A stretch of 64,000 bases of DNA from an uncultured Chthonomonadaceae bacterium (GTDB lineage Bacteria > Armatimonadota > Chthonomonadetes > Chthonomonadales > Chthonomonadaceae). The position numbers were made by a program, and so were the translations under genes. Positions 8,385 to 45,474 of the stretch are shown here, piece after piece. The notes under the pieces are model-generated. The model was not told the origin of the DNA, did no database searches, and saw only the letters and a program-made list of their open reading frames with translations. Positions within the stretch are counted from its first letter, which is position 1, and each line of letters begins with the position of its first letter. The stretch lies in NCBI GenBank assembly GCA_963817895.1, contig CAWFQB010000005.1:736001-800000 (forward strand), given 5' to 3'.

Positions 8385-8576
8385 TTGACCGCTCGACAAG
8401 TAATTAAACGTCTTTTGGATGAAGGCTGGTATGAAGACCGGCAAAACGGCAGCCACAAAGTTTTCAAGCATCCTGACAGACCGGGCCGGGTTGTTGTGGC
8501 GGTTCACGGCAGCAAAGACATACCTCGTAAAACACTTCAGGACATTTACGATCAAGCCGGATGGGGGAAACCATAA
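8385..8576 (+). CDS. hicA: HicA family toxin (mRNA interferase)
   Basis: 63 aa; GW..RQNGSHKVFKHP..GRVVV.VH...DI...TL..I..QAG. Confidence 0.9.
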   Translation: MTARQVIKRLLDEGWYEDRQNGSHKVFKHPDRPGRVVVAVHGSKDIPRKTLQDIYDQAGWGKP

Positions 8577-8800
8577 TGAACGAGTATGCGGTTGTTTATG
8601 AGCGGGGTGAGGAGGGCGAGGAGAATTGGGGCGCCTACGTTCCTGACCTTCCGGGCTGCACTACGACGGCGGACACCTTTGAGGAGGCGCAGCGTAATAT
8701 TCAGGAAGCCATTGAGGGCTACATTGCGTCCCTGCGTGACGGCGGAGAACCTGTGCCACGTCCCACAACCATAGTTGGGCGTGTCGCAGTTGCAGCGTGA
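8576..8800 (+). CDS. hicB: HicB family antitoxin (short form, no DNA-binding domain)
   Basis: TAATG stop/start overlap with hicA; VPDLPGCTT..DTFEEA..NIQEAI...GEPVPRP. Confidence 0.9.
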   Translation: MNEYAVVYERGEEGEENWGAYVPDLPGCTTTADTFEEAQRNIQEAIEGYIASLRDGGEPVPRPTTIVGRVAVAA

Positions 8801-8820: not shown

Positions 8821-10397
8821 CTAATTCTCTATTTGCGCCCACGCTGCGGTCTTAACGATGTCTTGCATCTGCGCGGGCGTCAGGCCCAGTTTGGCCGCGC
8901 TCGTAATCACGTCCCGCATGTCCACGCCGTACCAGTTGCGCTTGTTCGGTTCGCCTAATCCCGCTACGTTCAAACACGCGATGGCATCGGCTACCTGACG
9001 TTCAAAATCAGCAGCGTTTAATTTCCGCTTTGTACGCACGTGTTCACGCAGTTGTTGCGCGGCGTGTTTCATTCCCGTTGCGAATGGCGGGAAATCTGCG
9101 GCAAGGAACTGTTGCGGGCGGGCAGGCATGTCAACGCGACGCGCCATTTCCGCGTGACTTGCGGCGGCAAAATAGAACATTGAGAACGCCCTAAATAATG
9201 GAAAGTCCGTCATTCCCGCATAGCAGGCGGCAATGAACTGCGCCGTCCAATCGGCTTCGCGCAGGGTAACGCTGTTATACTCCTGTAAGTCGCGCTTCCC
9301 AGCTCCTGCGTACCCCACGCTTCTTCAAACATTCGTCCCAACCGCTCAATTCCTAACAGCGTCAGCGGCATTCCCGTGCTGAAGAGCGGGTCTACAAACG
9401 CCATTGCGGACGGCAGCAGCGCCCACCTTTCTCCGGCGGCAATGCTCATGCGATACGTAAGTTTGGGCGCGTAAACAAACGGGCGAATGGTCTTCGCGTC
9501 GGCAAACTGCGCCTCAACCGTCGGGAAGCGGCGTAAAATACGCGGCCACGCGGCTTCGCCCTCCGCAAGGTTCAACTCCCGCGCCAGCCAATCTTCTATT
9601 GCCACGCCCGCGCTCGTGACGCCATTATTAAACCGCAAAACCCACATCCAGCCGCCCTCAAAGACATGATGCAGCGCGGCGTCATCGGGCGGATACGGGG
9701 GCGTTTCGGGAGTTTGGAAAACGTTCATACGGTCGCAACGGTGTACGTTCGTGAAATGCGAATATAAGGCTTGCGTGGGCGGGTAAGCGGCAAAACTTGC
9801 AGTCGGCAAATTCAGGCTTCGCGCCAGCAGTCCGTTCGGCCCGCCCGCATCCACGACAAATTGTGCCACGACGCGAATGGCCTGCCCGTACCGCTCGCCC
9901 GTCAGAATTGCGCTCCCCGCCGTAAACTCCGCGCCGCACAATCGCGTTTCATCCAGATACTCCACGCCCAACGCCAGCGCTTCCCGCAAAAGAAAATCAT
10001 CTACATCCGAGCGCAGCCAGTGCGTATCCGCAACCGCGTTGTTCGGGCTTGCCGCGACAATCAGTTGATTTCCGCGCGCAGGGTCGGGACAAAACGGCCT
10101 GCCCGCCTGATGGTGGTAATAGGTGAAGCCGCGTTTTAATCCGCAAACGACATCGGGGTACGCGGCCTGCCACGCGCCATAGGTGGTCAGAGGAAGCAGG
10201 CGGGAGAGGTCGTAACGATGCGCAAGCTGTTCAATCAGCAGGTTCATCAGGGGCGACGTGGATTCGCCGATGGCAAACCGGGGATGCTTGCCCTTTTCCA
10301 GCAAAATCACGCGCAGCCCGATACGCCGCGCAATCATCGCCAGCAGCGTTCCGCCAAATCCTGAGCCAATAACGGCTATATCGTAGTCTGTTTGCAT
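8821..10397 (-). CDS. Flavin-dependent halogenase-like oxidoreductase (frameshift near 9300)
   Basis: IAVIGSGFGG FAD motif, RFAIGES, GLKRGF (candidate catalytic Lys), GGWMWVLRF (WxWxIP-like) and FVDPLFSTG. C-terminus is in ORF 8821-9318. Confidence 0.8.
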
Positions 10398-11323
10398 GGT
10401 TCAAGACAATCACAGTCCACTGTCAGCGGCAAGGATTGCAAGCGATTCATTTCCGCGATACGTTTGGCGCGGGCGGGGGAACAGGCGCAGGCATAGAACT
10501 TTTCTATGTCCCATAAATCCGCGAACACGCGCCCTCGTTGTAAGTTTAGGCCGTACTCCTGCGCGGATTCGAGAGAACGAAGCGAAGGAGGGGCGAACAT
10601 TCCGGCTTCAGCCAATGCTTCCATTGCGCCATTGCCGCCCCGCGTCGGTATCAGGCAGCAGACGGACGCGCCCGCGTCGAAGGCCACGTCCAGCGAACGC
10701 TTTGCCCATTCCAGCCCCTCCGCCTCACTCATAAACGGCGGGCGAACCAGCAGAAACACGCGCAGGTCTATGCCTTCCTGACGCAGCCACGCGGCTTTCT
10801 GTTGAAAATCCTCTACGGTAAACCGCTTGTTCAAACGCTGCAACACCTGCGGGTGCGCGGTTTCCAGCCCGATAGCCACTTCCAACTTCCCTGCCAATCT
10901 CCTGCGGAACTGTCGGCAGCGTTCGCCGATAAAAGCCGGGTGCGCTTCCACAATCACGCGCTCGAAATGGGTGACAAGGGCGGCGATCTCCTCATCGTCT
11001 TCGGGCGGGATGGCGTTGGGATCGAAGAAACTGCCCGCGTTATAGAGTTTAATCTGGCGGGCGGGCGGCAAACGGTTGAGCGCATGGCGTATCTGCGCGG
11101 CAATCGCGCCTTGTGGTACGGTCGTATCCAGCGTGTTCTGCCACAAATCGCACATCAGGCAACGGAACGGACACTCGCGATTGGTCAGAAACACGGTCGC
11201 GGTCGGCACGAGTTCGCCATTCGCGCCCCATTCCTCTTCCCATAAAAACGCATACGGAACAAGCGCGTCAAGGGCGTTTTTCGGGCCGCGCTGTGCAGTT
11301 ATCCAGCGACTTTCATAGTTCAC
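10376..11323 (-). CDS. Radical SAM protein, TIGR01210/RaSEA-like
   Basis: CPFRCLMC (CxxxCxxC), IKLYNAGSFFD, LEVAIGLET, FLLVRPPF and PPSL.S resemble the archaeal RaSEA family. Overlaps the halogenase start. Confidence 0.8.
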   Translation of the reverse strand: MNYESRWITAQRGPKNALDALVPYAFLWEEEWGANGELVPTATVFLTNRECPFRCLMCDLWQNTLDTTVPQGAIAAQIRHALNRLPPARQIKLYNAGSFFDPNAIPPEDDEEIAALVTHFERVIVEAHPAFIGERCRQFRRRLAGKLEVAIGLETAHPQVLQRLNKRFTVEDFQQKAAWLRQEGIDLRVFLLVRPPFMSEAEGLEWAKRSLDVAFDAGASVCCLIPTRGGNGAMEALAEAGMFAPPSLRSLESAQEYGLNLQRGRVFADLWDIEKFYACACSPARAKRIAEMNRLQSLPLTVDCDCLEPCKQTTI

Positions 11324-12766
11324 TTATTTCGACGCTTCCGCAGGGACGACATTGCCTGATAATCGCTCACTTTCCGGGTTCCAGGCTTCGCGCAGGCGGT
11401 CTTCCCACTGGCGCAGAAACACCTGCCGACACCACGCCTTGCTGACCCGCCAATCCCGGTACGATTCGCCGCCCGCCCCGTCCTGAAAGCGGCGCTTGGG
11501 GTATACGGGCATGTCGATTCCTGTCACTGCGCGAATGCCCGCCTGCACAACCGTTTGTTTTAAGGTATACAGCCGTTCCACGCTGCCGTTCAGAACCGTT
11601 TCAAAGGGAATGGCAAGCGCGGGCGCGATTACGGAACGCATAGTATAGGGGGAAAGCGCGTCAAAGCCGTAGCGCTGCGCGGGCGCGTATGTGCGGACAT
11701 AGGCGCGGGACAGGCCGCCCGAATACGTCAGGCTGTGCTTCATGTTTTCCACGCCCCAGCCCTCCTGATACAGCAGGGGGTTGCGCAGAACGCTTGAGAG
11801 AGTCAGGTCGGAGTCTTCCAGCGGGTAGGATTTCAGGTTCTCGTCGCCGCCGTCGCCGTCCAACAGGTATTTGAGGTTCGGATAGCGTTCGCGGATGGCG
11901 CGGAGCAGGCACAGCGCGACGGCGGCGCACTCTACGTCGAGCGGGTGATAGTCCTCAATGACTCCAATCGCCGCTTCTAAGTCAACATGGCTTGCGGGAA
12001 CCTGTACGCGCTCCCATTGCGCTTCAAGCCCCAGTTCTTTTACAACCATTTCGGCCTGTTGCGCATCCTTGCCGTTGCCAAGATCAAGGGTAAAGGCGCG
12101 GAGCAGATTGGGGTCGCGTCCCAATTCTTTCAGGGCATGATTTGCCAGAATTAAAATTGATGTGCTGTCAATGCCGCCTGAAAAAGCCAGCCCAATTTGT
12201 TCCCCGTCCGGCAGTCCTCCAAGCCAGCGTTTCAGCACGGCATACGCCGCGCCGACATAGTTTGCGCCCGCTTCTTCCAGGTCGGTTGTGCCCTGCCCGA
12301 TGGGGGGCGTAAAAAAGCGGTGGTAGCGGGGCGCGGGGTCGGGGCAGCCGATCTGGTCAATCTCGACAAGATAGTGCGCGGGAACCATGCGCGTGTACAT
12401 CGGGTCGAACTGCCAGCCGATTTTCTGCTCCTGACACCACTGGAACAGGCTGTCTATGCGGTCGGAAACCAGCAGGAACGGACCGTGAAACATCTTCGCC
12501 ACAAAATAGCGCAGGGGAACGCCGATTGTGCGGGCAAGCCGAACTGTCTGCTCACATCGCGCCGTCCCCGCGAAATGCCCGTCCATGCCTGCAAGGGTAG
12601 CTATATCCGCGTTGCGAATAGCCGTTAAAATCGCATCTGAACTGCCTGCTTCCGGCCTTTCAACACTGGACGCCAAAACAGTGTTCGATGCTACATTTGT
12701 ATTATCCTTCAAGGCCGCATGATGCAGGCCGGTCAAATCCACAAGGCGTTCCACCCCCAAAAGCAT
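11324..12766 (-). CDS. Asparagine-synthase-like (PP-loop) ATP-dependent amide ligase
   Basis: FSGGIDS PP-loop, LDGDGGDEN and C-terminal KRRFQDG. ATG 12766 with GGAGG RBS. No N-terminal Cys. Confidence 0.8.
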   Translation of the reverse strand: MLLGVERLVDLTGLHHAALKDNTNVASNTVLASSVERPEAGSSDAILTAIRNADIATLAGMDGHFAGTARCEQTVRLARTIGVPLRYFVAKMFHGPFLLVSDRIDSLFQWCQEQKIGWQFDPMYTRMVPAHYLVEIDQIGCPDPAPRYHRFFTPPIGQGTTDLEEAGANYVGAAYAVLKRWLGGLPDGEQIGLAFSGGIDSTSILILANHALKELGRDPNLLRAFTLDLGNGKDAQQAEMVVKELGLEAQWERVQVPASHVDLEAAIGVIEDYHPLDVECAAVALCLLRAIRERYPNLKYLLDGDGGDENLKSYPLEDSDLTLSSVLRNPLLYQEGWGVENMKHSLTYSGGLSRAYVRTYAPAQRYGFDALSPYTMRSVIAPALAIPFETVLNGSVERLYTLKQTVVQAGIRAVTGIDMPVYPKRRFQDGAGGESYRDWRVSKAWCRQVFLRQWEDRLREAWNPESERLSGNVVPAEASK

Positions 12767-12900
12767 AACACACCTCCCAAAACGATTACCGCGAGTATTC
12801 GTCAATCTATTGGCGGTTTCCTGCTCAACGCGCCGACATAAGCCCACATAGGCGTGTCGCAGTCGCCAGAGATCGAAAATCCCTGTTAAGCTGTGGGGAC

Positions 12901-14298
12901 GTGAACACCTTAAAATTTGAAACGCGCTCCTCGATCCAGCGTCAAAAGGAATTACGAACGGCAGCGGCGAACTGTAGCGGTAGTCAGTCGTTCAGGATAA
13001 AGCAGGAGGCGTCAGTGTCCGCTGTTCCCTCACAAACAAAACGCGCTTCACGGTTTGCCGGTTTGCGCCGCCCGCGCAAATGGGTGTCGCGCCGCGCCGT
13101 TTTGCGTTTCATGGCGTGGGCCTGTCTGCCGACGTTTTGGGTCGGGCTGGTGACATACCGGGGAGTTCAAAAGCGGCAACTGTTTGAAGCGGTGCAGAGC
13201 GGAAGCCCCACGAAAGTGCAACGCCTGTTGCGCTCCGGCATGGACGCCAATACGGTTGTGAATACGCAGATTATTGACAATCACAATCCGCTGATGATGC
13301 TATGGTGGTGGGGTACGCGCTGGTCCGACAAAGAGGAGGACACCAACTGCGCGCCGATTCTGGTCAGCGCGGCGCAAAAGGGGGATCGGGACATTGTGAC
13401 CCTGCTGCTGGACGCGGGCGCGAAAGTCAATGCCAAAGACCCGTCCGGCGCAACGCCCCTGATGGCCGCCTGCGAAGTTGGGAAGCCTCAAATAGCGGAA
13501 CTGCTGCTGGCGCGGGGGGCGCATCCCAACGCCGCCGATAACAACGGCGAAACCGCGCTGATGAACGCGGTCACGTTTCCCAAAGTGGTCAAATTACTGC
13601 TGACGCATGGCGCAAAGGTCAATGTTCGCGACATTGAGGGGCGTACCGCGCTGTCAAGAGCCTGCTCGAACGGCCAGATGACAGTCGCGCGGCTTCTGGT
13701 GGATGCGGGGGCGGATGTCAACCCGCAGCGCGTGGGCGATGATACGCCGTTGCGCAATGCGGCAGGGCAAAACAGCGTCAAGCTGGTACGCCTGCTGTTG
13801 GAACATGGGGCCGATGTGCAACGCGCCGAAGAAAACGGCCTGACGCCCCTGATGGCGGCAAACAACGCCGAAATCGCGCGGCTGCTGCTGGCGCATGGCG
13901 CGAACGTGAACGCTGTTTCCAAAGTCGGCGATACGCCTCTGATGATGACGGCCACCATTGATGACGGGCGCCTGGCTGCCGCGCTGCTGGCGCGGGGGGC
14001 GCGGCTTGAGGACGTGGACAAGGACGGCGATACCGCCCTGTTCTGGGCCGTGAGCAGTCACACGCGCAAATATGCGCGGGGATTGTTGGAAGCGGGCGCG
14101 AATGTCAACGCGCAAAACAGAGTCGGCGATACGCCCCTGCTGAAAGCCGAAGCCGAAGGCGACATGGGAATGGGCGCGCTGCTGTTGCAGCATGGCGCAA
14201 ACGCCGCTCTGGTCAACAAAGCCGGCCACTCGGCGCAGGCATGGGTGGCAACGCTTCCCGTTCCTCCACTTGTGGCGTCCAAAACAGCCGGGCATTGA
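12901..14298 (+). CDS. Ankyrin repeat protein with N-terminal membrane/signal segment (start uncertain)
   Basis: About 9 repeats of G.TPL..A...G....V.LLL..GA.VN. Confidence 0.9.
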   Translation: MNTLKFETRSSIQRQKELRTAAANCSGSQSFRIKQEASVSAVPSQTKRASRFAGLRRPRKWVSRRAVLRFMAWACLPTFWVGLVTYRGVQKRQLFEAVQSGSPTKVQRLLRSGMDANTVVNTQIIDNHNPLMMLWWWGTRWSDKEEDTNCAPILVSAAQKGDRDIVTLLLDAGAKVNAKDPSGATPLMAACEVGKPQIAELLLARGAHPNAADNNGETALMNAVTFPKVVKLLLTHGAKVNVRDIEGRTALSRACSNGQMTVARLLVDAGADVNPQRVGDDTPLRNAAGQNSVKLVRLLLEHGADVQRAEENGLTPLMAANNAEIARLLLAHGANVNAVSKVGDTPLMMTATIDDGRLAAALLARGARLEDVDKDGDTALFWAVSSHTRKYARGLLEAGANVNAQNRVGDTPLLKAEAEGDMGMGALLLQHGANAALVNKAGHSAQAWVATLPVPPLVASKTAGH

Positions 14299-14370
14299 AA
14301 ATCCCGTTCGAGTGGCGTTCCGCGTAGGGACATAACTTGTTATGTCCCTACGGACGTAATCTCTGAATAA

Positions 14371-15512
14371 CTCACCTTACGCAGGCGAGCAGTTTGTAGT
14401 CACAGATTTGCTGTTGTTGACGGTAGAATAGTGTCATGGACAAACAACTTCTGGACCTTTACTCAGACTATCTCCTTTGTTCGTTCGGCCTGACTACCGC
14501 GACGGGCCTTTCCACCCTGCTCGACGGCGCGATTAGCCACGACAAGATCACGCGGTTCTTGTCAGGACGTGACTTCACTTCTTCGGACCTGTGGCATCTG
14601 GTCAAACCCTTGGTACGGCAGGTACAATGTGAAGACGCAGTTCTGGTCTTCGATGACAGCATCGAAGAAAAACTCTATACGGATGAAAGCGAACTCATTT
14701 GCTGGCATTGGGATCATTGCTTCAACCGCAACGTGAAGGGCATCAACATTCTGACCTGTTTGTATCGCGCGCCCACTGCCGCTCTGCCCGTTGCCTTCGA
14801 GTTGATCCAAAAGTCGGCTTGGGAAACGCATAAGAAGACGGGCAAACCCAAGCGAGTGTGTCCCAAGACCAAGAACGAATACCTGCGCGAGATGGTGGCG
14901 CAATGTCAGAAGAACCAATTGCCTTTTCGCTATGTCCTGGCCGACGCTTGGTTCAGCGCGGCAGAAACGATGATGCACCTCAAAAACGAAGGCAAAACCG
15001 ACTTTATCTTCCCGATTAAGGCCAACCGCAAGGTGGCTTTGTCCCAGGAAGACAAGTTGGCAGGCCGCTATATGCCCGTATCCTCGCTTTGCTGCGAAGC
15101 GGACGCCGTATTGAACATCTGGCTGGAGGGGGTAAACTTCCCCCTTCTGCTGTGTAAGCAGGTCTTTACAAACAAGGACGGCAGCCAGGGCGTTCTCTAT
15201 CTCGTGACGAGTGACACGACGTTAAGCGGTTGCGACATCCAGACGATCTACCAAAAACGGTGGAAAGTGGAAGAGTATCACAAATCGGTCAAGAGCAATG
15301 CGAGTTTCGCCAAGTCGCCGACCAAAACTATTCGGACCCAGAGCAACCATATCTTCGCCTGTTTATGGGCGTATGTGAAGTTGGAAAGTCTGCGTTTGCA
15401 GACGCGCTTGAACCATTTTGCGATGAAAGGCAGGCTCTACAAAGCGGCCCTTGCCAGCGCCTACCGCGAACTACAACTGCTCAAAGGCATGAGTGCGCCT
15501 GCGTAAGGTGAG
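14371..15512 (+). mobile_element. IS701-like insertion sequence, 1142 bp
   Basis: Perfect 17-bp TIRs CTCACCTTACGCAGGCG (14371-14387) and CGCCTGCGTAAGGTGAG (15496-15512). Direct repeat TGAATAA at 14364-14370 and 15513-15519. Confidence 0.92.
14436..15506 (+). CDS. DDE transposase (IS701-like)
   Basis: LVFDDS, VLADAWF, Y.KRWKVEEYHK..K motifs; intact 356 aa. Confidence 0.9.
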   Translation: MDKQLLDLYSDYLLCSFGLTTATGLSTLLDGAISHDKITRFLSGRDFTSSDLWHLVKPLVRQVQCEDAVLVFDDSIEEKLYTDESELICWHWDHCFNRNVKGINILTCLYRAPTAALPVAFELIQKSAWETHKKTGKPKRVCPKTKNEYLREMVAQCQKNQLPFRYVLADAWFSAAETMMHLKNEGKTDFIFPIKANRKVALSQEDKLAGRYMPVSSLCCEADAVLNIWLEGVNFPLLLCKQVFTNKDGSQGVLYLVTSDTTLSGCDIQTIYQKRWKVEEYHKSVKSNASFAKSPTKTIRTQSNHIFACLWAYVKLESLRLQTRLNHFAMKGRLYKAALASAYRELQLLKGMSAPA

Positions 15513-15547
15513 TGAATAAGCATCTGCGTCCGTAGGAGGACATAACA

Positions 15548-16513
15548 TTGCGAAAACCAAACGGGCGTTTCTGGAAAAATATGCTGCTGCTGCTGCTCGC
15601 GGCTGGCCTGCTGACGCTGCTATTGGGCTGGCAGAGCTGGAATATCGTTCGGCAGTCGCGTCTGGATTATGGCCTGATTGTGGCTGTGCGCGACGGCGAT
15701 CCGGCACGGGTTACGCAATTACTGACGGAGGGAGCCGACCCGAACGCCCGCGATTTGGAAGCGCAAAAACACACGCCCCGGCAGATTCTGAAAATCTTCA
15801 TGGATCGCCTGCTCCGCCACCCCGCTCCCGTTCCGCGCAAACCAACCGCCCTGATTCTCGCCGCCGAGCATCCGCATCCAGACATCACGCGCGCCCTGTT
15901 GCAAGCGGGCGCGCGCCCGGATTATACCGATGGCGAGAGCCGGACGGCGATTATAGCGGCGGCCTACTGCGGCGAAGCGGGCAACATCAAAGAATTGATT
16001 GAGGGCAAGGCAAACATTGACGCGCTGGATGATAAAGGCCGCTCCGCGCTGATGGGCGCGTCCGTGTGCGGCTACGCGCCTGCGGTAAGCGTACTGTTAG
16101 AGCATGGCGCAAACCCAAACGTTCAGACGGTTTTTGGGCGGACATCGCTGATGTGGGCGGCGGGCTTCCATTTCCCCGTTGTGGTTCGCCTGCTGCTGAA
16201 CCACAAGGCGGATGTGAACGCGCGGGACAAGGAGGGCAAGTCCGCCCTGATGTACGCGCTCGGCGATGGCGCGGCGAACATTGCCCTGCCGCCCTCTCCC
16301 AAGTTTTACCCGACAACCGGCGCTCCGTATACGGGAGGCCCCGGACGCAACAATGCGGAGCCGAATGTTCACGACTGCGTAGCCCTGCTGCTGCTCAACG
16401 GCGCGGACCCGAACACGCGGGACAACGCGGGGCTTTCCGCCGCAAAGCAGGCCGCCGCCGAAGGCTACCCTGACCTGATTGACGCGCTTGCAAAGGCCGG
16501 GGCAAAACCGTGA
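15548..16513 (+). CDS. Ankyrin repeat protein with signal/TM anchor
   Basis: Hydrophobic N-terminus, multiple ankyrin repeats, TTG start after AGGAGG. Confidence 0.88.
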   Translation: MRKPNGRFWKNMLLLLLAAGLLTLLLGWQSWNIVRQSRLDYGLIVAVRDGDPARVTQLLTEGADPNARDLEAQKHTPRQILKIFMDRLLRHPAPVPRKPTALILAAEHPHPDITRALLQAGARPDYTDGESRTAIIAAAYCGEAGNIKELIEGKANIDALDDKGRSALMGASVCGYAPAVSVLLEHGANPNVQTVFGRTSLMWAAGFHFPVVVRLLLNHKADVNARDKEGKSALMYALGDGAANIALPPSPKFYPTTGAPYTGGPGRNNAEPNVHDCVALLLLNGADPNTRDNAGLSAAKQAAAEGYPDLIDALAKAGAKP

Positions 16514-30874: not shown

Positions 30875-33800
30875 TTAGCGCGAACCCGATCCGGCAACGA
30901 CCTGCGTGGTATAGCTGATGGCTCCGGCTCCTGTCGAGGCGAATCGCAGCGTGAGCGTGGCCGAGGAACCGGGGTTGCCGCTGGCCGCGAGACTTCCGGC
31001 AGGCAGGTTGATGTACGGGCGTCCCGCGGGCAAAACCGCGCTCGTGGTTCCGGTAGCGTTTTGCAGCGTTCCGTTCGTCAGATTGCCCAGTATCAGCGAA
31101 ATGGGGCCATTGATAGCCGTTGCGCTTGTGTTGGTGAGAGTGACTGTCTGCGTGTAGGTTCTGGAAGGGCGATCATACACGAACGAGCCGCGCGTCACGG
31201 TAACGATTCCGCTGACATCCGTCGGGCCAACCGGGATAACGGGGTTAACGGTGATACTGACAGTTGCCGTATTGCTGTCTTTCACGCCGTTGTTCACTTT
31301 GAATGTGAAGCTATCGCTGCCGAAGTAGCCCGCGTTCGGCGTATACGTCACATTGGGCGCGGTTCCGCTTAATGTACCGTTTGTGGGATTGGAAACAATC
31401 GTGTACGTCAGGCTGCGCGGCGGCGTATTCGGGTCCGAACCCGTCAGCGTTATTCCAACGGCGGTATCCTGATTGGTGGTCACGGATTGCGGGTTCGCCG
31501 TGGGAGCCAAAACCACCTGTGTTACGGTGATGCTGACCGTCGCCACATTGCTGTCTTTGACGCCGTTATTCACCTTGAACGTGAAGCTATCCGGGCCGAA
31601 GTACCCGGCAGTCGGCGTATACGTCAAGTTCGGAGCCGTTCCACTCAATGTGCCGTGTGTGGGACTGGACACGACGGAGTAGGTCAGCGAACGCGGTGGC
31701 ATGTTGGGGTCGGAACCTGTGAGCGTAATGCCGACAGCGGTATCCTGGTTAGTTGTGACCGATTGTGGATTGGCGACGGGAGCCTGAACCACTTGCGTCA
31801 CGGTGATGCTGACGGTAGCCGTGTTACTATCCTTTACGCCGTTATTCGCTTTGAAGGTGAAGCTGTCCGGGCCGAAGTAGCCCGCAGTCGGCGTGTATGT
31901 CAGGTTCGGCGCCGTTCCTGTGAGTGTGCCATGCGCCGGGTTGCTGACTACTGAATAGGTCAGCGAACGCGCCGGGTTGTTCGGATCGGAACCGGTCAGC
32001 GTGATGCCCACAGCCGTATCTTGATTGGTGGTCACGCTCTGATTATTGGCGGTGGGAGCCAAAACCACCTGTGTCACGGTGATGCTGACAGTGGCGACAT
32101 TACTATCTTTAACGCCATTGTTGGCCTTGAACGTGAAGCTGTCGCTGCCGAAGTATCCGGCTGTCGGCGTATACGTCAGGTTGGGAGCCGTGCCACTCAA
32201 CGTTCCATGTGTCGGACCGGATACGACGGAGTAGGTCAGCGAACGCGCCGGAGTGTTAGGGTCGGAAGCGGTCAAGGTAATACCGACTGCCGTATCCTGG
32301 TTAGTTGTGACCGATTGGTTGTTGGCAACGGGAGCCATAACCACCTGTGTTACGGTGATGCTGACGGTCGCCGCGCTGCTGGTATTGGTGCCGTTACTGA
32401 CGGTGAAGGTGAAGCTGTCCGGGCCGAAGTAGCCCGCAGTCGGCGTATAAGTCACACTGCCCGTAGCGGCATTGAAGCCTGACAATGTGCCGTGTGTGGG
32501 ATTGCTGGCAATGGCGTAGGTAAGCGTAAGCGCCGGAACGTCATCGTCGGAACCGGTCAGGGTAATGGCTTTGGCCGTGTCCTGATTGGTCGTCACGCTT
32601 TGAGGGTTGGCCGTCGGAGTTCCCGCCGCGACGTTGAGAGTGACGGTTGCCGGACTGCTGGTATTCGTGCCGTTGCTGACGGTGAAGGTGAAACTGTCGG
32701 TACCATGATAACCCGTAGTCGGTGTATATGTCACGCTGCCGGTGGAGGCATTGAAGCCTGACAATGTGCCGTGTGTGGGATTGCTGGCAATGGCGTAGGT
32801 AAGCGTAAGCGCCGGAACGTCAGCGTCGGAACCGGTCAGGGTAATGGCTTTGGCGGTGTTGTGGGCAACGGACACGCTCTGGCCGTTGGCCGTTGGGGTT
32901 CCAACAGCGACGGTAAGGGTGACGGTCGCCGCGCTGCTGGTCAAGACTCCATTATTGACGGTGAAGGTGAAAGTGTCGCTGCCATGATAACCCGCAGTCG
33001 GCGTGTAAGTCACACTGCCGGTAGCGGCATTGAAGCCTGACAATGTGCCGTTTGTGGGATTGGTGGCAATGGCGTAGGTAAGACTGCGCGGCGGCGAGTT
33101 CGGATCGGAACCGGTCAAGGTAATGGCTTTGGCGGTGTTGTGGGCAACGGACACGCTTTGATTGTTGGCGGTGGGCCTGCCGATGACGTTGATAGTGACG
33201 GTTGCGATGTTGCTGTCTTCGTAACCATCATTAGCCTTGAACTGGAAGGTGTCTGTTCCGAAGAAACCGGCGTTGGGCTGATACGTCAGATTGGGAGCCG
33301 TGCCGGTCAGGGAGCCGTGCGTGGGATTAGTCGTGACGGTGTAGGTTAGCGAGTCGTTGTCCGCGTCCGATGCGGTCAGCGTGATGTTAATTCCCGTGCT
33401 TTGCCCCGTAGTTACGGTTTGGTTATTGGCGACAGGCGGGGTGTTGATGCCGAGTTTGGCGAAGAACGCCCGCGAAACCACATTGCCGCTTCCCTGTTGC
33501 GTACCGGTGACATAAACGTTATTGCCGACTACGCCCACGCCGGTAGCGGCATCATCCCGCGTGGTTCCGAGATAGGTGGAATAGATCAGCGTGGCATTTC
33601 CGACTTGCGTGGGATCAATTTTGGCGACAAACGCGTCCTGTTCGCTAGGTCCGCCACTATTCTGACCGCCGCCCGCAACGGGGTTGCGTGTTGGGAAATT
33701 GGTGGTCGTGGTATACCCCACAATATAGGCGTTGCCGGAGGCATCCAGGTCTACGCCGAGTCCTCCTGAGTCGATAAGGCCTCCTGAGTTGATAATGGCG

Positions 33801-35923
33801 GGTGTGCTGGTGCTGCCGCCGAGGTAGGTGGAGTACAGCAGGCTGTTCGTGCCGTTGATGGTGGTATCCATCTCGAACAGCGTGGCGTTGGAGGATACTA
33901 CATTGTTCGAGCCTGCGGCTCCGCCGCCATACGCGCTTTGCGCCGCGTTCTTCGTGGGAAAGTTGGTGGTGTTGCTCGTGCCTGCTACCCAGACAATGCC
34001 GCTGCCAAGGAACGCCATGCCGAAAGCGTTACTGTTGCGTCCCCCATTAGTGTTATTGTACTCGATGCTGCCGCCGAAATACGTGCCGAACACGAGCGAA
34101 GCATTCCCGCTCTGGTTGGTATCTACGCGCAGCAACAGGGTCTTACTTCCAAATCCCCCCCCATTGGGCAGGGTCGTGGTATACGTGCGGGCGGGCGGGC
34201 CGCCGGGTCCATCCATGTAAGGGGCAGTGGAGTGGGATACAAATACATCACTGGAGCTGGAATTTCCGATCACGTACGCGGTTCCGGGGTTCTGCGGGTC
34301 GGCAGCAATCCCCTCGCAGCTGGTATCGTTGTCACCCTCGAAAATGGTAGCGTAGACGAGCGTCTTGTAGGTGGCGCCACTCCCTTGCAGCCGAGCGACA
34401 AGGCCTACGGTAGCGCCGTTGCTGGCATCTTGAAAGTACTGGTCATACGTATTGTAGCCGTTCGTCAGGGGCGGGAATGGCTGGTTGTTGAAATTGCGAA
34501 CGGAGGACTCCCCCTGCATTCCGATACCGGTGGACCCGGCGAGGTAGATGTTGGTTCCCGCCGCGTCTACGGAAATGGCATTGATAGAGGAAGTGGTTTG
34601 CCAGCCGAAGTAGCTGCCATATTGCACCACCCCCAAGTCATTTAATTTTGCCACATAGCCGTTTGACCTGTTGGCGGTATTAGTGCCGAGCGCCATCTGG
34701 TAGCCATTGGGAACCGGCATATTCGTAGAGGCTGCCGCTCCACAGATATAGACGTTGTTTGCGCCGTCGAGAGCAACGCCGGAGCCTTGATCATTGCCAT
34801 TGCCGCCGATGATACTCAGGTACTTTAGCGCACCGGTGGAATCCAGCTTGATGACATACATGTCATTGAGATTTTGAGAAATGTTTTGATTGGTTGGTGT
34901 GCCGCTGGGATTGGCGCCGTTGAGCGTGGTCGTTCCGCCGGAATAGTAGGTCAGGGTCGTGTTGTTGCCCTGATTGGTGTTGTAGGCAACAGTTCCGACA
35001 CTGTAGGAGTTGCCGTTGCTGTCCACAACAGTGCCTGCGCCCAGGTTGGACGCCCGTACCCCCGATGCGTTGCCAATCAGCGTGTTGAAGTAGTGTACAA
35101 CCAGAACGGGGTCAATCACGAGCGGGCGGGCGTGATCGTAATTCGCCAGCGCAAAGCCGACGCGCGCATCCCCGGAAGGCTGGATTTTTACGTCGTAACG
35201 CGCGGGGACGGGCGTTCGCTTGCCGTTGATGTTCTGGTAAGCGACCGGGCGCTGCCAGCGCACTTCGCCCGTTCCCATGCCAAGCCGCAGATTGCCCGCC
35301 TCATCCACCCTGATATGCTTCGCGCCCTCGAAATTCAAGCGCACTTTGGAAGCGTCCGCGCCGGGGCGGACGATGAAATCGTATTCCAACTGCTTTTGAT
35401 TGCCGTAGTACACCAGGTCTACGCCGGAATACACCTGCTTCAAGCGGACGCGGGAAAACGTCGGTACGCCTGTATGCCACTTTTTGGGGTTATTGCCGAT
35501 GAAATAGTTGATTTTACCGGGCAGTTCCGCTTCGCCCGTCACTTCGGGGCGCGGATTGGCTCCCACCAGTTTCATCCGCATCGGCCTGTCCGGCGCGGCG
35601 GCAATTCGCGTATGGGATTTCGCTTTTGCTGTTCTTGGAGCGGTTTTTGCCGCATCCGTTCGGGCGTTGAGGCCGAGCAGCACTTCCCCCGGCGTGATGG
35701 CGACCTGATAGTCTCCATGCAGGGAAAGGAAGCGAGCATCGCCCCCGACCTGTCCCATGTTCTGCTCGAATTGCAGCGGGGTGACGGCATACTTTGTGTC
35801 AATCCGCGCCTTGCCTTTTGCAGCGAGTGGCGTCTGACTCCAGGAAACGGAAGTGGCTGCGGCGAACAGGGCAAGGATCGCGGGCAGCGGACGACGTAAA
35901 GGCGTAGTCCATTTGTAGCGCAT
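30875..35923 (-). CDS. Large secreted surface protein: N-terminal DUF7948-like domain, SBBP beta-propeller repeats, 8 tandem Ig-like (tandem-95) repeats and a conserved C-terminal domain
   Basis: Signal peptide; FEQNMGQ, NYFIGN..KW.TGVP, LEYDFIV.PG and PLVIDP motifs; YSTYLGG/AFVAKI repeats; eight ~92-aa P.AN.QSV...TLTGSD...YTP..G..G.DSFTF repeats. Confidence 0.9.
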   Translation of the reverse strand: MRYKWTTPLRRPLPAILALFAAATSVSWSQTPLAAKGKARIDTKYAVTPLQFEQNMGQVGGDARFLSLHGDYQVAITPGEVLLGLNARTDAAKTAPRTAKAKSHTRIAAAPDRPMRMKLVGANPRPEVTGEAELPGKINYFIGNNPKKWHTGVPTFSRVRLKQVYSGVDLVYYGNQKQLEYDFIVRPGADASKVRLNFEGAKHIRVDEAGNLRLGMGTGEVRWQRPVAYQNINGKRTPVPARYDVKIQPSGDARVGFALANYDHARPLVIDPVLVVHYFNTLIGNASGVRASNLGAGTVVDSNGNSYSVGTVAYNTNQGNNTTLTYYSGGTTTLNGANPSGTPTNQNISQNLNDMYVIKLDSTGALKYLSIIGGNGNDQGSGVALDGANNVYICGAAASTNMPVPNGYQMALGTNTANRSNGYVAKLNDLGVVQYGSYFGWQTTSSINAISVDAAGTNIYLAGSTGIGMQGESSVRNFNNQPFPPLTNGYNTYDQYFQDASNGATVGLVARLQGSGATYKTLVYATIFEGDNDTSCEGIAADPQNPGTAYVIGNSSSSDVFVSHSTAPYMDGPGGPPARTYTTTLPNGGGFGSKTLLLRVDTNQSGNASLVFGTYFGGSIEYNNTNGGRNSNAFGMAFLGSGIVWVAGTSNTTNFPTKNAAQSAYGGGAAGSNNVVSSNATLFEMDTTINGTNSLLYSTYLGGSTSTPAIINSGGLIDSGGLGVDLDASGNAYIVGYTTTTNFPTRNPVAGGGQNSGGPSEQDAFVAKIDPTQVGNATLIYSTYLGTTRDDAATGVGVVGNNVYVTGTQQGSGNVVSRAFFAKLGINTPPVANNQTVTTGQSTGINITLTASDADNDSLTYTVTTNPTHGSLTGTAPNLTYQPNAGFFGTDTFQFKANDGYEDSNIATVTINVIGRPTANNQSVSVAHNTAKAITLTGSDPNSPPRSLTYAIATNPTNGTLSGFNAATGSVTYTPTAGYHGSDTFTFTVNNGVLTSSAATVTLTVAVGTPTANGQSVSVAHNTAKAITLTGSDADVPALTLTYAIASNPTHGTLSGFNASTGSVTYTPTTGYHGTDSFTFTVSNGTNTSSPATVTLNVAAGTPTANPQSVTTNQDTAKAITLTGSDDDVPALTLTYAIASNPTHGTLSGFNAATGSVTYTPTAGYFGPDSFTFTVSNGTNTSSAATVSITVTQVVMAPVANNQSVTTNQDTAVGITLTASDPNTPARSLTYSVVSGPTHGTLSGTAPNLTYTPTAGYFGSDSFTFKANNGVKDSNVATVSITVTQVVLAPTANNQSVTTNQDTAVGITLTGSDPNNPARSLTYSVVSNPAHGTLTGTAPNLTYTPTAGYFGPDSFTFKANNGVKDSNTATVSITVTQVVQAPVANPQSVTTNQDTAVGITLTGSDPNMPPRSLTYSVVSSPTHGTLSGTAPNLTYTPTAGYFGPDSFTFKVNNGVKDSNVATVSITVTQVVLAPTANPQSVTTNQDTAVGITLTGSDPNTPPRSLTYTIVSNPTNGTLSGTAPNVTYTPNAGYFGSDSFTFKVNNGVKDSNTATVSITVNPVIPVGPTDVSGIVTVTRGSFVYDRPSRTYTQTVTLTNTSATAINGPISLILGNLTNGTLQNATGTTSAVLPAGRPYINLPAGSLAASGNPGSSATLTLRFASTGAGAISYTTQVVAGSGSR

Positions 35924-42680: not shown

Positions 42681-45474
42681 CTAACGCTTCGCCTGCATCA
42701 GGCTCATCCAGACGGAGAGGGTTGCGTTTTCCGGGGTGAGTTCGCGGGCCTGACGCAGGGCTTCCAGGGCGCGGGCATTGTCTTTGCTGCGGTAGAAGGC
42801 CAGCCCCTCCTGCGCCAGTTCTTCTGCATAATCGTAGGCGTCGCTGTACCCGATCAGCGTTTGCCGCAGCACCTCCTCCATGGTATGCGCGAAGATGATG
42901 CGCCGATGCGCCATCTGTTCCGGGCGCTGATAGTACAGCGCGGCCAGATCGGACTCGGATAGGCTGCCCGCCGGTAAAATAACTGTCCGAACGGTCGGGT
43001 CGTTGAACACGGCGTCCAGTTTCTGTACCAGTCCGCCAACGGGTTCCACCTGCCCGTTCGCGCCCAACACGCCCGTGACCACAACCGAACGGTCTACGGG
43101 CATTTGCAGACACGCGGATACCAGCGCGACCGCGTCCGCCACGCCCGATGATTTGCCCCGCGTTCGCGCCTCCTCGTCCGGATAGCGCAGCAATGCGTCG
43201 GTATGCGCCCAATCCAATCCCTGCCCCGCCTGCGCCGTCTTTTCCCGCGCATAGTCGAACGCCCGTTTCGCCGCGCTTTGCGTATCCCGTTCCGCTTTGG
43301 CCTCAAACGTAAACTTGCCGTCACCCGGATGAATACTCGCTTCAATCGGAATAATGTGGCCTATCACGGGCATTTTGCCGAGATAGATTACGGCAACTCC
43401 CCGCGCTATGCCGATTGCGCCGTCACGCGGGGCGGGCTTGTCGTCCACCGCGCCCAAAATCGGATGGCGCAGGGCGGTTGTCACGCGCCTGCCGCTTTGG
43501 GGGGACGCCGTTTTGAACTTCCGCTGTAACTGCGCGTCCTCCTGCGCCCGTTTTGCGGCCCACGCCACATTCTTAACTTCCATACGCCCTGCCGAACTGA
43601 CGTACAGCGCGTCGTTTTCATCCCGCGTTTCCGCTGTCAGGGTATGCGGACCGGGCGGCAGGTTGGTTACATCGCAAACGGCTGTATCGAACGGCGCATG
43701 AGTTTGCGTTGCCACCGCCGCGCCGTCAATCAGGAATGTCACCTGCGTTGGGGCCAGTCCGGGCGCGAGGGTTGCCTTCAGCGGCAGCGTATGCGCGGTT
43801 TTTGTGACTACAACCAACGCGGGGGGCGGCTGAACCCGAACCCTCGTCGGTATCGTCACCTGAACCGGCAGCGATCTGAAGGATACGCCCTCGCTGTCTG
43901 TGCCAACCACCCACAGCGCGTGATTGCCGGGCTGGCGGCTGCGCGGGTCGAAGAGCGCGGTTTGCAAATCGGCAGGGTCAGACTGTAACGGGTGTCCATC
44001 CACAAAATACAGAAGGGATTGCGGCGTAAACCCCGGACTGATTTGCGCCCGCAACGTGACCGGCGCAAACAAATTCACGCTCTCATCCAGAGGCTGTAAC
44101 TGTAGCGGGGCATGTTCAAACACAAGCAGGCGGCTTTGCCCCACCGCTCGCGTTACGCCGCTTGTCAGGTTTTGCCGCACCTTCAGCGTATGCAGGCCGG
44201 GGGGCAGAATTTGTGTGGACACGGGCAGCGCGAACTTGCCCCTGCCGTTAAAGCCCGACTGCCGCTGTCCGTCCACATACGCGGCCACTTCCGTATCATT
44301 GGCCTCCTCGGAAACCCCCGTTAAAACAACATCGGTTCCCGCCGCGACCGACAACCGCTCCGGCAGGCGCGCAATGGCAACGGTCACGCGCTTGCGAGCC
44401 AGCAACGCGCTCTCCACAGTGGCATAAACCGCGCTGTCTTCCTCCCCGGTCGCAACCCGCATCCCGACAAACGGCTCTTCCGTAGACACCCGCCTGCCCG
44501 GACGGCGATAAACGGCGAATTTCAGCGGCGCGGAAACCGTATGCGTCCCCATCTCGTTTTCCACATCCACAACCAGCGTATGCGCCCCGCTTGCCAGACT
44601 GTTCGGGTTCCACGTGGCCTGTGTAAACGGGGATTCGCGTCGTTCGGCAATGGTTTTGCCGTCTACCGCATACGTGGCTACGCGGGGATGAAGGGAAGCG
44701 TCAATATCGGCGCGAACACTTATTTTGCCGTTCAGCGCGGACATATCCAGATTCTCGCCAGCAGCAAACGGCAGAACGCGCAGTTTCGGGATGACGGTAA
44801 CGGGAATGGAATCCAGCGTGTACAAACTGCCATCCGTCAGGCGGGCGACGCCGCCCAACAGATGGGTTCCCCGCGCAATGGCGCTCGGATTCCACCAGAC
44901 GTCCGCGTCGCGGTTGGCAAACAGTCCCAGCGGCTTGCCATCCAGCGTATAGCCGATTCGATCTACGCGATCCTCGCCGGTCGGTTCGATATGCAGGCTG
45001 ACGGGTTCGGTCACGCGGGCATCCGGCGCGGGGCTGGCGATACGGAACGGAGCCGCATTGACAATACGCAGTTTGGTTTGCGCCCGCATCCGCCACTCGC
45101 CGTTTACCTGCTGCAAACACGGCTAAAATGCAAACCGTAAAATGTTCCGTTTGCGTGTCATAGCGCAGTTGCCATTTGTCCTGAAAGGTCTTGCGGGAAC
45201 GGGGTTCATTCCCCGCCCGGATAGCAAATGTCTGCGGTTCGCCCGTACGCGGTCCGATGCCCTCAAAGCGCAGGCTGTCTCCCCGCTTGAGAACGAGGGA
45301 CGGCGGCAGGGTTTCAAACGTGTAGGTAAACACGCGCGGTTCCTGTCCCTGCGCATTTGCGGCTGATGTGGCAAGCAGTCCGATCCATAGCCCGCACATT
45401 CCTGCCAGCGCGTACAGCAAAGGATAAGTCCGATACAAATGAAAATGAGAAAAGAGCTTCTTACAGTTTTTCAA
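42681..45474 (-). CDS. Secreted Ig-like-repeat protein with C-terminal Lon (S16) protease domain and TPR-like tail (frameshift near 45120)
   Basis: Signal peptide (..LLATSAANAQ); repeated F.VDG....P...W/D....G.HTL Ig units; RGKSSGVA (GPSAG-like Ser), VVTG.L...G.V.PVGGL.QK (Lys) and VILPAG. Confidence 0.75.

Follow-up and report, generated by a model that had tools for sequence, protein, structure and literature searches.

In archaea, ArcS adds lysine to preQ0 and the radical S-adenosylmethionine (SAM) enzyme RaSEA turns preQ0-Lys into archaeosine; in the species studied there, ArcS takes lysine and neither glutamine nor ammonium (available part of PMC11298593). The same lysine route to archaeosine is covered in the available part of PMC7694415. 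Among flavin-dependent halogenases, PltM acts on free phenols and anilines but not on tryptophan, can use chloride, bromide or iodide, and is inactive as the K87A variant (available part of PMC6424973). These systems, together with asparagine synthetase (AsnB), beta-lactam synthetase and CarA, are the closest described counterparts of a three-gene operon that we analyzed in a stretch of 64,000 nucleotides (hereafter the window; contig CAWFQB010000005.1, positions 736,001 to 800,000) from an uncultured Chthonomonadaceae bacterium of the phylum Armatimonadota. The operon encodes an AsnB-like ligase, a radical SAM enzyme and a flavin-dependent halogenase, together referred to as the trio. The original prediction, made from the letters of the window, had read it as a stand-alone pathway without a characterized counterpart that would yield a halogenated small molecule, cofactor or nucleoside. 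The lack of a characterized counterpart was supported, as searches of the open literature found no description of this trio (subscription papers and supplements were not covered). The available part of the main text of a preprint on sponge Halo_AMP contains no mention of asparagine, PltM, PrnC or CRTAC1 (10.64898/2026.08.03.742642).

The locus resembles the ArcS–RaSEA system of Euryarchaeota in that a radical SAM enzyme whose nearest family is RaSEA (TIGR01210) is strictly paired with an enzyme lacking a working glutamine route, and the logic proposed to be shared is the use of lysine as nitrogen donor, as laid out for archaea in the available part of PMC11298593. It differs in that the partner is an AsnB-fold ATP-dependent ligase and not the TGT-like ArcS, in being bacterial and in usually including a halogenase. 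The halogenase keeps the FAD motif, catalytic Lys, WxW and DPLxSxG of PltM (phloroglucinol halogenase) and CtcP (tetracycline 7-halogenase), but the match spans only its residues 1 to 350–410, the C-terminal substrate region differs, and it stands beside a ligase and a radical SAM enzyme, not in the context of a polyketide synthase (PKS) or nonribosomal peptide synthetase. The ligase has the two-domain fold (Z 20–25) and adenylation-site motifs of AsnB, beta-lactam synthetase and CarA, although identity to them in structure alignments is only 12–22%. Each of the three enzymes belongs to a known superfamily, yet either falls outside its nearest named family or can be only incompletely assigned to it. 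UnbV (E4) and UnbU (E5) belong to enediyne clusters, and the trio-linked loci of relatives, though not the window, likewise encode FG-GAP/UnbV_ASPIC propellers and an RnfD-like membrane protein, which we take to be UnbU-like. Unlike in enediyne clusters, no enediyne PKS occurred among the recurring neighbors (no genome-wide search was made), and DUF1702 (E3) matched in none of five genomes, nor in any control genome.

The three genes almost certainly belong to one pathway. Their distribution was investigated in a phylum sample of 301 genomes, in which related genomes are not independent. The ligase was detected in 49/301 genomes, the radical SAM gene in 50/301 and the halogenase in 49/301. All 49 ligase genomes carried the radical SAM gene, the fiftieth copy being a 31%-identical outlier in G149, and 48 of the 49 carried the halogenase (it was missing from G074, 88% complete, while G091 contained the halogenase alone). 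Presence within families was patchy (14/17, 4/15, 13/27, 5/13 and 3/19), and these split families indicate that joint gain or loss was repeated, with the caveat that kin are not independent. In six genomes (G022, G261, G026, G075, G234 and G035) the genes were separated and all three were still kept. A second set comprised the best 80 of at least 567 confirmed stretches (600 checked) from GTDB, some of them from genomes also in the phylum sample; these 80 loci came from Armatimonadota, Acidobacteriota, Verrucomicrobiota, Planctomycetota and, in one case, Bacteroidota. In 70 loci the sequence continued for 3 kb or more downstream of the ligase; 54 of these contained the full trio in order, nine the first two genes and seven the ligase alone, a clustering far beyond chance. 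Ligase identity ranged from 45 to 86% across Armatimonadota, Acidobacteriota, Verrucomicrobiota and Planctomycetota, and the pairwise distances of the three genes correlated with one another (Spearman 0.56–0.79, 67 loci). Co-occurrence in other genomes, which the original prediction had named as one test, was thus borne out in Acidobacteriota, Verrucomicrobiota and Planctomycetota besides the home phylum.

Outside Armatimonadota, the Acidobacteriota contained the ligase in 9/111 genomes and the halogenase in 9/111, with eight in common; these tallies include the unpublished G329, without which they are eight, eight and seven. In Planctomycetota the ligase was found in 3/91 genomes, two of which also had the halogenase. 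G316 encoded a divergent ligase–radical SAM pair without a halogenase. The ligase–radical SAM pair is the core, and the halogenase is its usual third member. Ten long hits were fusions, five joining the radical SAM enzyme to the halogenase and five the ligase to the radical SAM enzyme, and one of them, P0393, was clean and full-length.

On sequence and model, the ligase is not an AsnB and is of the acyl-adenylating amide ligase type that would need an outside amine. The Pfam Asn_synthase match is restricted to amino acids 190–327, and TIGR01536 gave 46 bits, below its curated cut-off of 267. In alignment with human ASNS and E. coli AsnB, the ligase showed the PP-loop SGGIDS at 196–201, GDGGDE at 304–309 and KRRFQ at 424–428. 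SGGxDS and KxRFQ occurred in 67/67 intact loci and GDGGDE in 66/67, and a GCPDP motif was specific to the family. The AlphaFold2 model (pLDDT 87) matched human and E. coli asparagine synthetase and beta-lactam synthetase over the whole chain (Z 24–25, rmsd ~4, ~380 residues aligned), the top match being beta-lactam synthetase 1mbz (Z 25.1, rmsd 4.0, 386 aligned); the fold is the two-domain glutaminase-less AsnB fold, as in beta-lactam synthetase or CarA. Because this match starts only at about residue 40 of AsnB and beta-lactam synthetase, the Cys1 glutaminase nucleophile is missing. Specifically, the ligase begins with MLLGVER, from an ATG with a ribosome-binding site, and lacks the first ~40 residues of AsnB. 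The AsnB stretch TTIRA/TTVRA, the Arg of which has a role in aspartate binding, is DVEC in the ligase, which suggests an acid substrate other than that of AsnB. No genes of clavam or carbapenem clusters occurred among the recurring neighbors of the trio loci. Complex prediction of the ligase with the radical SAM enzyme gave no answer (0.33, 0.00 and 0.00 in three runs).

The radical SAM enzyme contained a CxxxCxxC motif at residues 51–58, found in 67/67 intact loci, plus a C-terminal Cys cluster. TIGR01210 was by far the best family for all 18 aligned members (best E 4.4e-33; alignment A5, 18 rows without L071 and L141). The window copy scored 108 bits against this model, with a cut-off of 212 that three archaeal controls passed. 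ArcS (PF17884) was not found in the single genome searched, the window's own (G000, 81% complete), and the control matched in three archaea. The model of the enzyme (pLDDT 93) is without a close solved relative: BioB, queuine lyase and HydE were tied at Z 16.4–16.7 (queuine lyase Z 16.6, rmsd 3.2, 218 aligned), sequence searches of the PDB returned nothing, and Atlas matches were to unnamed clusters only. Since a ligase without a glutaminase is paired with a RaSEA-like enzyme, a two-step nitrogen delivery like that of ArcS and RaSEA suggests itself by analogy. Separately, the divergent RaSEA-like gene of G149 (L188:8271-9482, 31% identity) lies behind a 1348-aa open reading frame (ORF), in a different context and in a genome with no ligase or halogenase match.

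For the flavoenzyme, the original prediction had left the halogenase Lys to an alignment. K88, within CGLKRGF, aligns with PltM K87 and was present in 67/67 intact loci. The other landmarks are GSGFGG, WMW at 250–252 and DPLFSTG at 336–342. In an alignment of 20 halogenases, K88, W250, W252 and DPLxSxG were invariant in 20/20 and the columns of the GxGxxG FAD motif were likewise invariant; the strict WxW and DPLxSxG patterns each matched 63/67 loci. CtcP and PltM were the nearest solved relatives (E ~1e-48 for the N-terminal piece in the window, ~1e-45 for an intact relative). In the window, the reading frame is broken near 9290–9303, and both halves match intact relatives. A close-relative contig (73 of 602 letters differing) is without two bases, at 9290 and 9303, and its frame is consequently intact. 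Frame changes against relatives were seen by tblastn in 15 of 74 testable genes of G000, some possibly alignment artifacts, which makes an assembly error likelier than decay; the frameshift is probably such an error. The genes with frame changes include tgt, and broken genes of this assembly call for caution. A sequencing-run search returned one run, with a share of 0.07, which contained relatives and not this strain, and no RNA run was listed. We consider an active halogenase likely. Halogenase copies outside the operon (L158:8773-10641 and those of G075, G026 and G193) carry an in-frame insertion of ~60 aa or longer near aa 225–240.

The trio is tied to a second set of genes. CRTAC1-type FG-GAP/UnbV_ASPIC propeller genes lay within 10 kb of the trio in 46 of the best 80 GTDB loci. 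The other recurring neighbors in these loci were the RnfD-like membrane protein (35), a NitT/TauT-type importer (14) and an HMA-like protein (11), followed by DUF169 (9), a second flavoprotein (6), a porin (5) and an NQ-repeat peptide (5). Recurrence in a subset of loci only was noted for a methyltransferase beside the large propeller (two loci), DUF169, the HMA-like protein and the alginate-export-type porin. In the phylum sample, a large TPR-CRTAC1 lipoprotein was encoded by 46/49 trio genomes and 10/252 others, and the three trio genomes without it, G000 among them, were 69–86% complete. We then compared 78 genomes: 49 with the trio, 10 with the large propeller only and 19 negatives with neither. 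Genes for CRTAC1/UnbV proteins of ~570 aa were found in 49/49, 10/10 and 0/19 of these, respectively, RnfD/UnbU-like genes in 39/49, 6/10 and 0/19, strong matches to the importer binding protein in 37/49, 6/10 and 0/19, and the NQ peptide in 25/49, 1/10 and 0/19. All nine acidobacterial ligase genomes also had a large-propeller match, G329 being included in this tally. The trio implies propellers, not the reverse. G000 itself contained five ~570-aa CRTAC1 matches, none of them near the trio, and its NQ peptide gene adjoins one. The stand-alone character that the original prediction had assumed was therefore not supported, given propellers in 49/49 trio genomes and within 10 kb in 46/80 loci.

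The propellers have export-type N-termini, as read from sequence, and a PDB sequence search with the C-terminal part of the large propeller found nothing. CRTAC1 genes and ABC binding proteins also flank hydrazine-synthase homologs in non-anammox bacteria (available part of PMC12758564). In some acidobacterial clusters a second FAD protein is encoded upstream of the trio (L098:6864-8240 and five other loci); it scored 103 bits against the QhpG model, with a cut-off of 240.

The importer binding protein (L210, L211, L213 and L079) carries the motif PVT-C/U-xLTC, the first Cys of which is an in-frame stop in 6/14 rows (four distinct proteins). This is likely to reflect a selenoprotein ABC binding protein. 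G000 has a tRNA-Sec gene (C1:245013-245110), and the nearest solved structure of the binding protein is 3un6 (E 4.5e-32). The NQ peptide of G000 is 75 aa long (L151:11766-11993; G000:C1:1333765-1333989), and its gene is convergent with a CRTAC1 gene. It consists of Ile-x-x-Asn-Gln heptads, is rich in Lys, Asp and Glu, and matched no Pfam family and only unnamed Atlas clusters. Its relatives in several phyla adjoin importer, porin or propeller genes, not the trio. In ten NQ peptides the spacing between NQ pairs was seven in 57/72 intervals, with Ile three residues earlier in 69/82, and 10/10 contained no Trp or Tyr, with one Phe overall. The repeat is, by its sequence pattern, an Asn-at-d heptad. 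Trimeric coiled coils with Asn-at-d layers bind a chloride ion at their center (available part of PMC13580157), and by analogy we guess that the NQ peptide could be a halide-binding trimeric coiled coil. Clustering of small ORFs at 120 loci yielded only the HMA-like protein, AhpD-like pieces and the NQ peptide, and no ribosomally synthesized peptide (RiPP) precursor with a halogenase-usable residue was found beside the trio.

Taken by analogy with the described enzymes, the trio may well make a halogenated aromatic amide in the cytoplasm, with nitrogen probably donated by lysine, for use by the propeller system, although we stop just short of calling this whole reading probable. Like AsnB and beta-lactam synthetase, the ligase would adenylate a carboxylic acid; since it lacks a glutaminase, it would join this acid to an external amine, most likely lysine. 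The RaSEA-like enzyme would then cut a C–N bond of the adduct by radical chemistry, leaving a primary amide, which would transfer the ArcS–RaSEA logic of lysine as nitrogen donor to a new scaffold. We give this order of amide formation and C–N cleavage an even chance. The PltM/CtcP-like enzyme would halogenate a free electron-rich ring of the phenol, aniline or pyrrole type, with a flavin reductase supplied from elsewhere in the genome. The product would be a ligand or cofactor of the module formed by the propellers, the UnbU-like protein and the importer, and not a secreted antibiotic. That the product serves the propeller system is somewhat probable. In our judgement, a trio kept in single copy after its genes have scattered resembles a pathway for maturation or for a cofactor more closely than it does an antibiotic cluster. 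A more specific version, in which the trio matures an undescribed halogenated cofactor for a large family of periplasmic CRTAC1/UnbV beta-propellers, with amide nitrogen from lysine through the AsnB/RaSEA-like pair, an RnfD-like electron carrier, a Sec/Cys importer and a halide-storing NQ peptide, is unlikely; the trio would then parallel the pqq genes that serve PQQ propeller dehydrogenases.

Several observations weigh against the route to a halogenated amide for the propellers. Each of its chemical steps rests on analogy. The radical SAM enzyme reaches half of the RaSEA cut-off, and its structural neighbors include enzymes of other chemistry (BioB, HydE and MqnE). The halogenase is not obligate, as none was found in G302, G304, G316 and G074, and it is frameshifted in the G000 assembly. 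Several of the ligase–radical SAM fusions have a truncated ligase and are possibly sequencing read-throughs. The dependence on the propellers is one-way: ten genomes have the large propeller without the ligase, and in Acidobacteriota 41/111 genomes match the large propeller at the threshold used (G329 included), of which only nine have the ligase. The choice of the 19 negatives was made after the fact, from genomes with no ligase and no large propeller, and kin are not independent. Finally, no ortholog of the large propeller, the UnbU-like protein or the importer was found in G000 (81% complete), and the trio has no propeller gene close to it in the window.

This last point would fit a stand-alone secondary metabolite, i.e., a diffusible halogenated compound whose link to the propellers reflects a shared lifestyle or hitch-hiking. 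Among 48 loci that span 18 kb or more, 16 likewise had no CRTAC1 gene near the trio. CRTAC1 genes are frequent in the trio phyla and occur in multiple copies, and the pathways in which PltM and CtcP act lead to antibiotics or signals. However, the trio is kept in single copy even after gene scattering, it clusters physically with propellers in several phyla, and no dedicated exporter, regulator or scaffold synthase occurs among its recurring neighbors, and we regard such a metabolite as unlikely. Alternatively, the trio could modify a protein or peptide, maturing the propellers or the NQ-heptad peptide in the manner of QhpD/QhpG or LodB, which mature quinoproteins. The flavoenzyme of the window gave a weak match to QhpG (60 bits, cut-off 240), a second QhpG-like flavoprotein is present in 6/80 loci, and the Lys/Asp/Glu-rich NQ peptide tracks the system (25/49 vs. 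0/19). Still, the flavoenzyme is far nearer to free-substrate halogenases, the ten NQ peptides hold almost no aromatic residue and are encoded beside importer or propeller genes instead of the trio, and the propeller N-termini are of the export type, all of which make protein modification rather improbable.

A route to a 7-deazaguanine in tRNA or a nucleoside, in which the ligase would amidate carboxy-deazaguanine with lysine, the radical enzyme trim the adduct and the halogenase mark the pyrrole, is improbable as well. RaSEA, the nearest family, and queuine lyase, one of the tied nearest structures, both act on 7-deazaguanine side chains, and G000 and G261 each have a second TGT-family gene. 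Against this, ArcS was not found in G000 while the archaeal controls matched, QueC was not found in G121 and G210, two near-complete trio genomes (PTPS-family genes are present despite this), G022, G121 and G210 have a single TGT, and no tRNA-modification genes occur among the recurring neighbors. Of the small molecule, cofactor and nucleoside products named in the original prediction, the nucleoside option is thus weakened by the non-detection of ArcS in G000 and of QueC in G121 and G210. The first two steps could also follow other chemistry, such as lactam closure or a LarE-like sulfur transfer using the Cys of GCPDP, with the radical enzyme making a bond, for example in a metal-binding ligand for the Cys/Sec importer. 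GCPDP is present in 67/67 intact loci, beta-lactam synthetase is the top structural match of the ligase, the C/UxxxC motif is found in the importer binding protein, and a CxxC protein of the HMA-like kind is a recurring neighbor. Yet GCPDP is missing in more distant members of the ligase family, LarE matches the PP-loop domain only (Z ~12 vs. ~25), and the ligase sequence is nearer to AsnB than to beta-lactam synthetase; this chemistry seems highly unlikely.

As to the layout, the three genes are co-oriented and abut or overlap as first described, all on the minus strand, and G000 contains one copy of each. The TAA of the ligase gene (ATG at 12766) occupies 11326–11324 and abuts the GTG of the radical SAM gene at 11323, the 3' end of which overlaps the halogenase ATG (10397) by 22 nt. 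Every motif originally named was recovered (SGGIDS, GDGGDE, CxxxCxxC as C51/C55/C58, GSGFGG, WMWVL and FVDPLFSTG), and the family assignments hold in Pfam (Asn_synthase E 2.8e-14, Radical_SAM E 1.1e-6, Trp_halogenase E 8.5e-11). The ligase was not taken to start at the upstream GTG (12847), as relatives begin at the ATG that has the ribosome-binding site. Scans for promoters and terminators scored no higher than shuffled sequence.

Table 1. Features of the trio operon, in positions of the window.
Feature	Position	Strand	Details or evidence
SD-like GGAGG	12773..12777	-	6 nt 5' of ligase ATG; sequence
AsnB-like ATP-dependent ligase, 480 aa	11324..12766	-	Pfam, TIGRFAM, alignment, model, structure match
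Radical SAM enzyme, 315 aa, best family RaSEA (TIGR01210), below cut-off	10376..11323	-	
PltM/CtcP-like flavin-dependent halogenase, N-terminal ~365 codons	9300..10397	-	
Frameshift within halogenase gene, two bases extra vs. close relative	9290..9303	-	
Halogenase C-terminal ~155 codons, second frame	8821..9300	-	

The immediate neighbors in the window (HicAB, ankyrin genes, a transposase and folC) do not recur at other loci. A HicA/HicB toxin–antitoxin pair at 8400–8800 (plus strand) is convergent with the operon end, and at 12901–16513 two ankyrin-repeat genes, the second recognized from its repeats only, flank a DDE transposase gene (14436–15506) and are divergent from the operon. Elsewhere on the minus strand, the window encodes a 1682-aa protein with DUF7948 and Ig/cadherin repeats (30875–35923) and an 811-aa protein that joins Big_7 and Lon_C domains (42681–45116). 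In the wider genome, the second, divergent TGT-family gene (G000:C2:487961-489096; G261:C2:3651907-3653016) was seen in this genus only among five genomes. G000 also contains an array of 16 tRNA genes in 2.1 kb (G000:C4:227906-230044) and a tRNA with a CTA anticodon that ARAGORN called Pyl (C11:90528-90599).

Among the orphan pathways of poorly cultured phyla, the trio ranks with the better conserved ones. Should the proposed steps hold, a RaSEA-like enzyme would have its first bacterial role here, possibly along with a new way of making a primary amide without glutamine, and a widespread origin of organohalogens and a new clade of halogenases would come with it. Because of its tie to the propellers, the RnfD-like protein and the selenoprotein importer, the trio, with three soluble enzymes and intact copies in relatives, opens what those unexplained proteins do to experiment, and if the cofactor reading is true, the trio would provide the first biochemical handle on bacterial CRTAC1 and the enediyne E4/E5 proteins.

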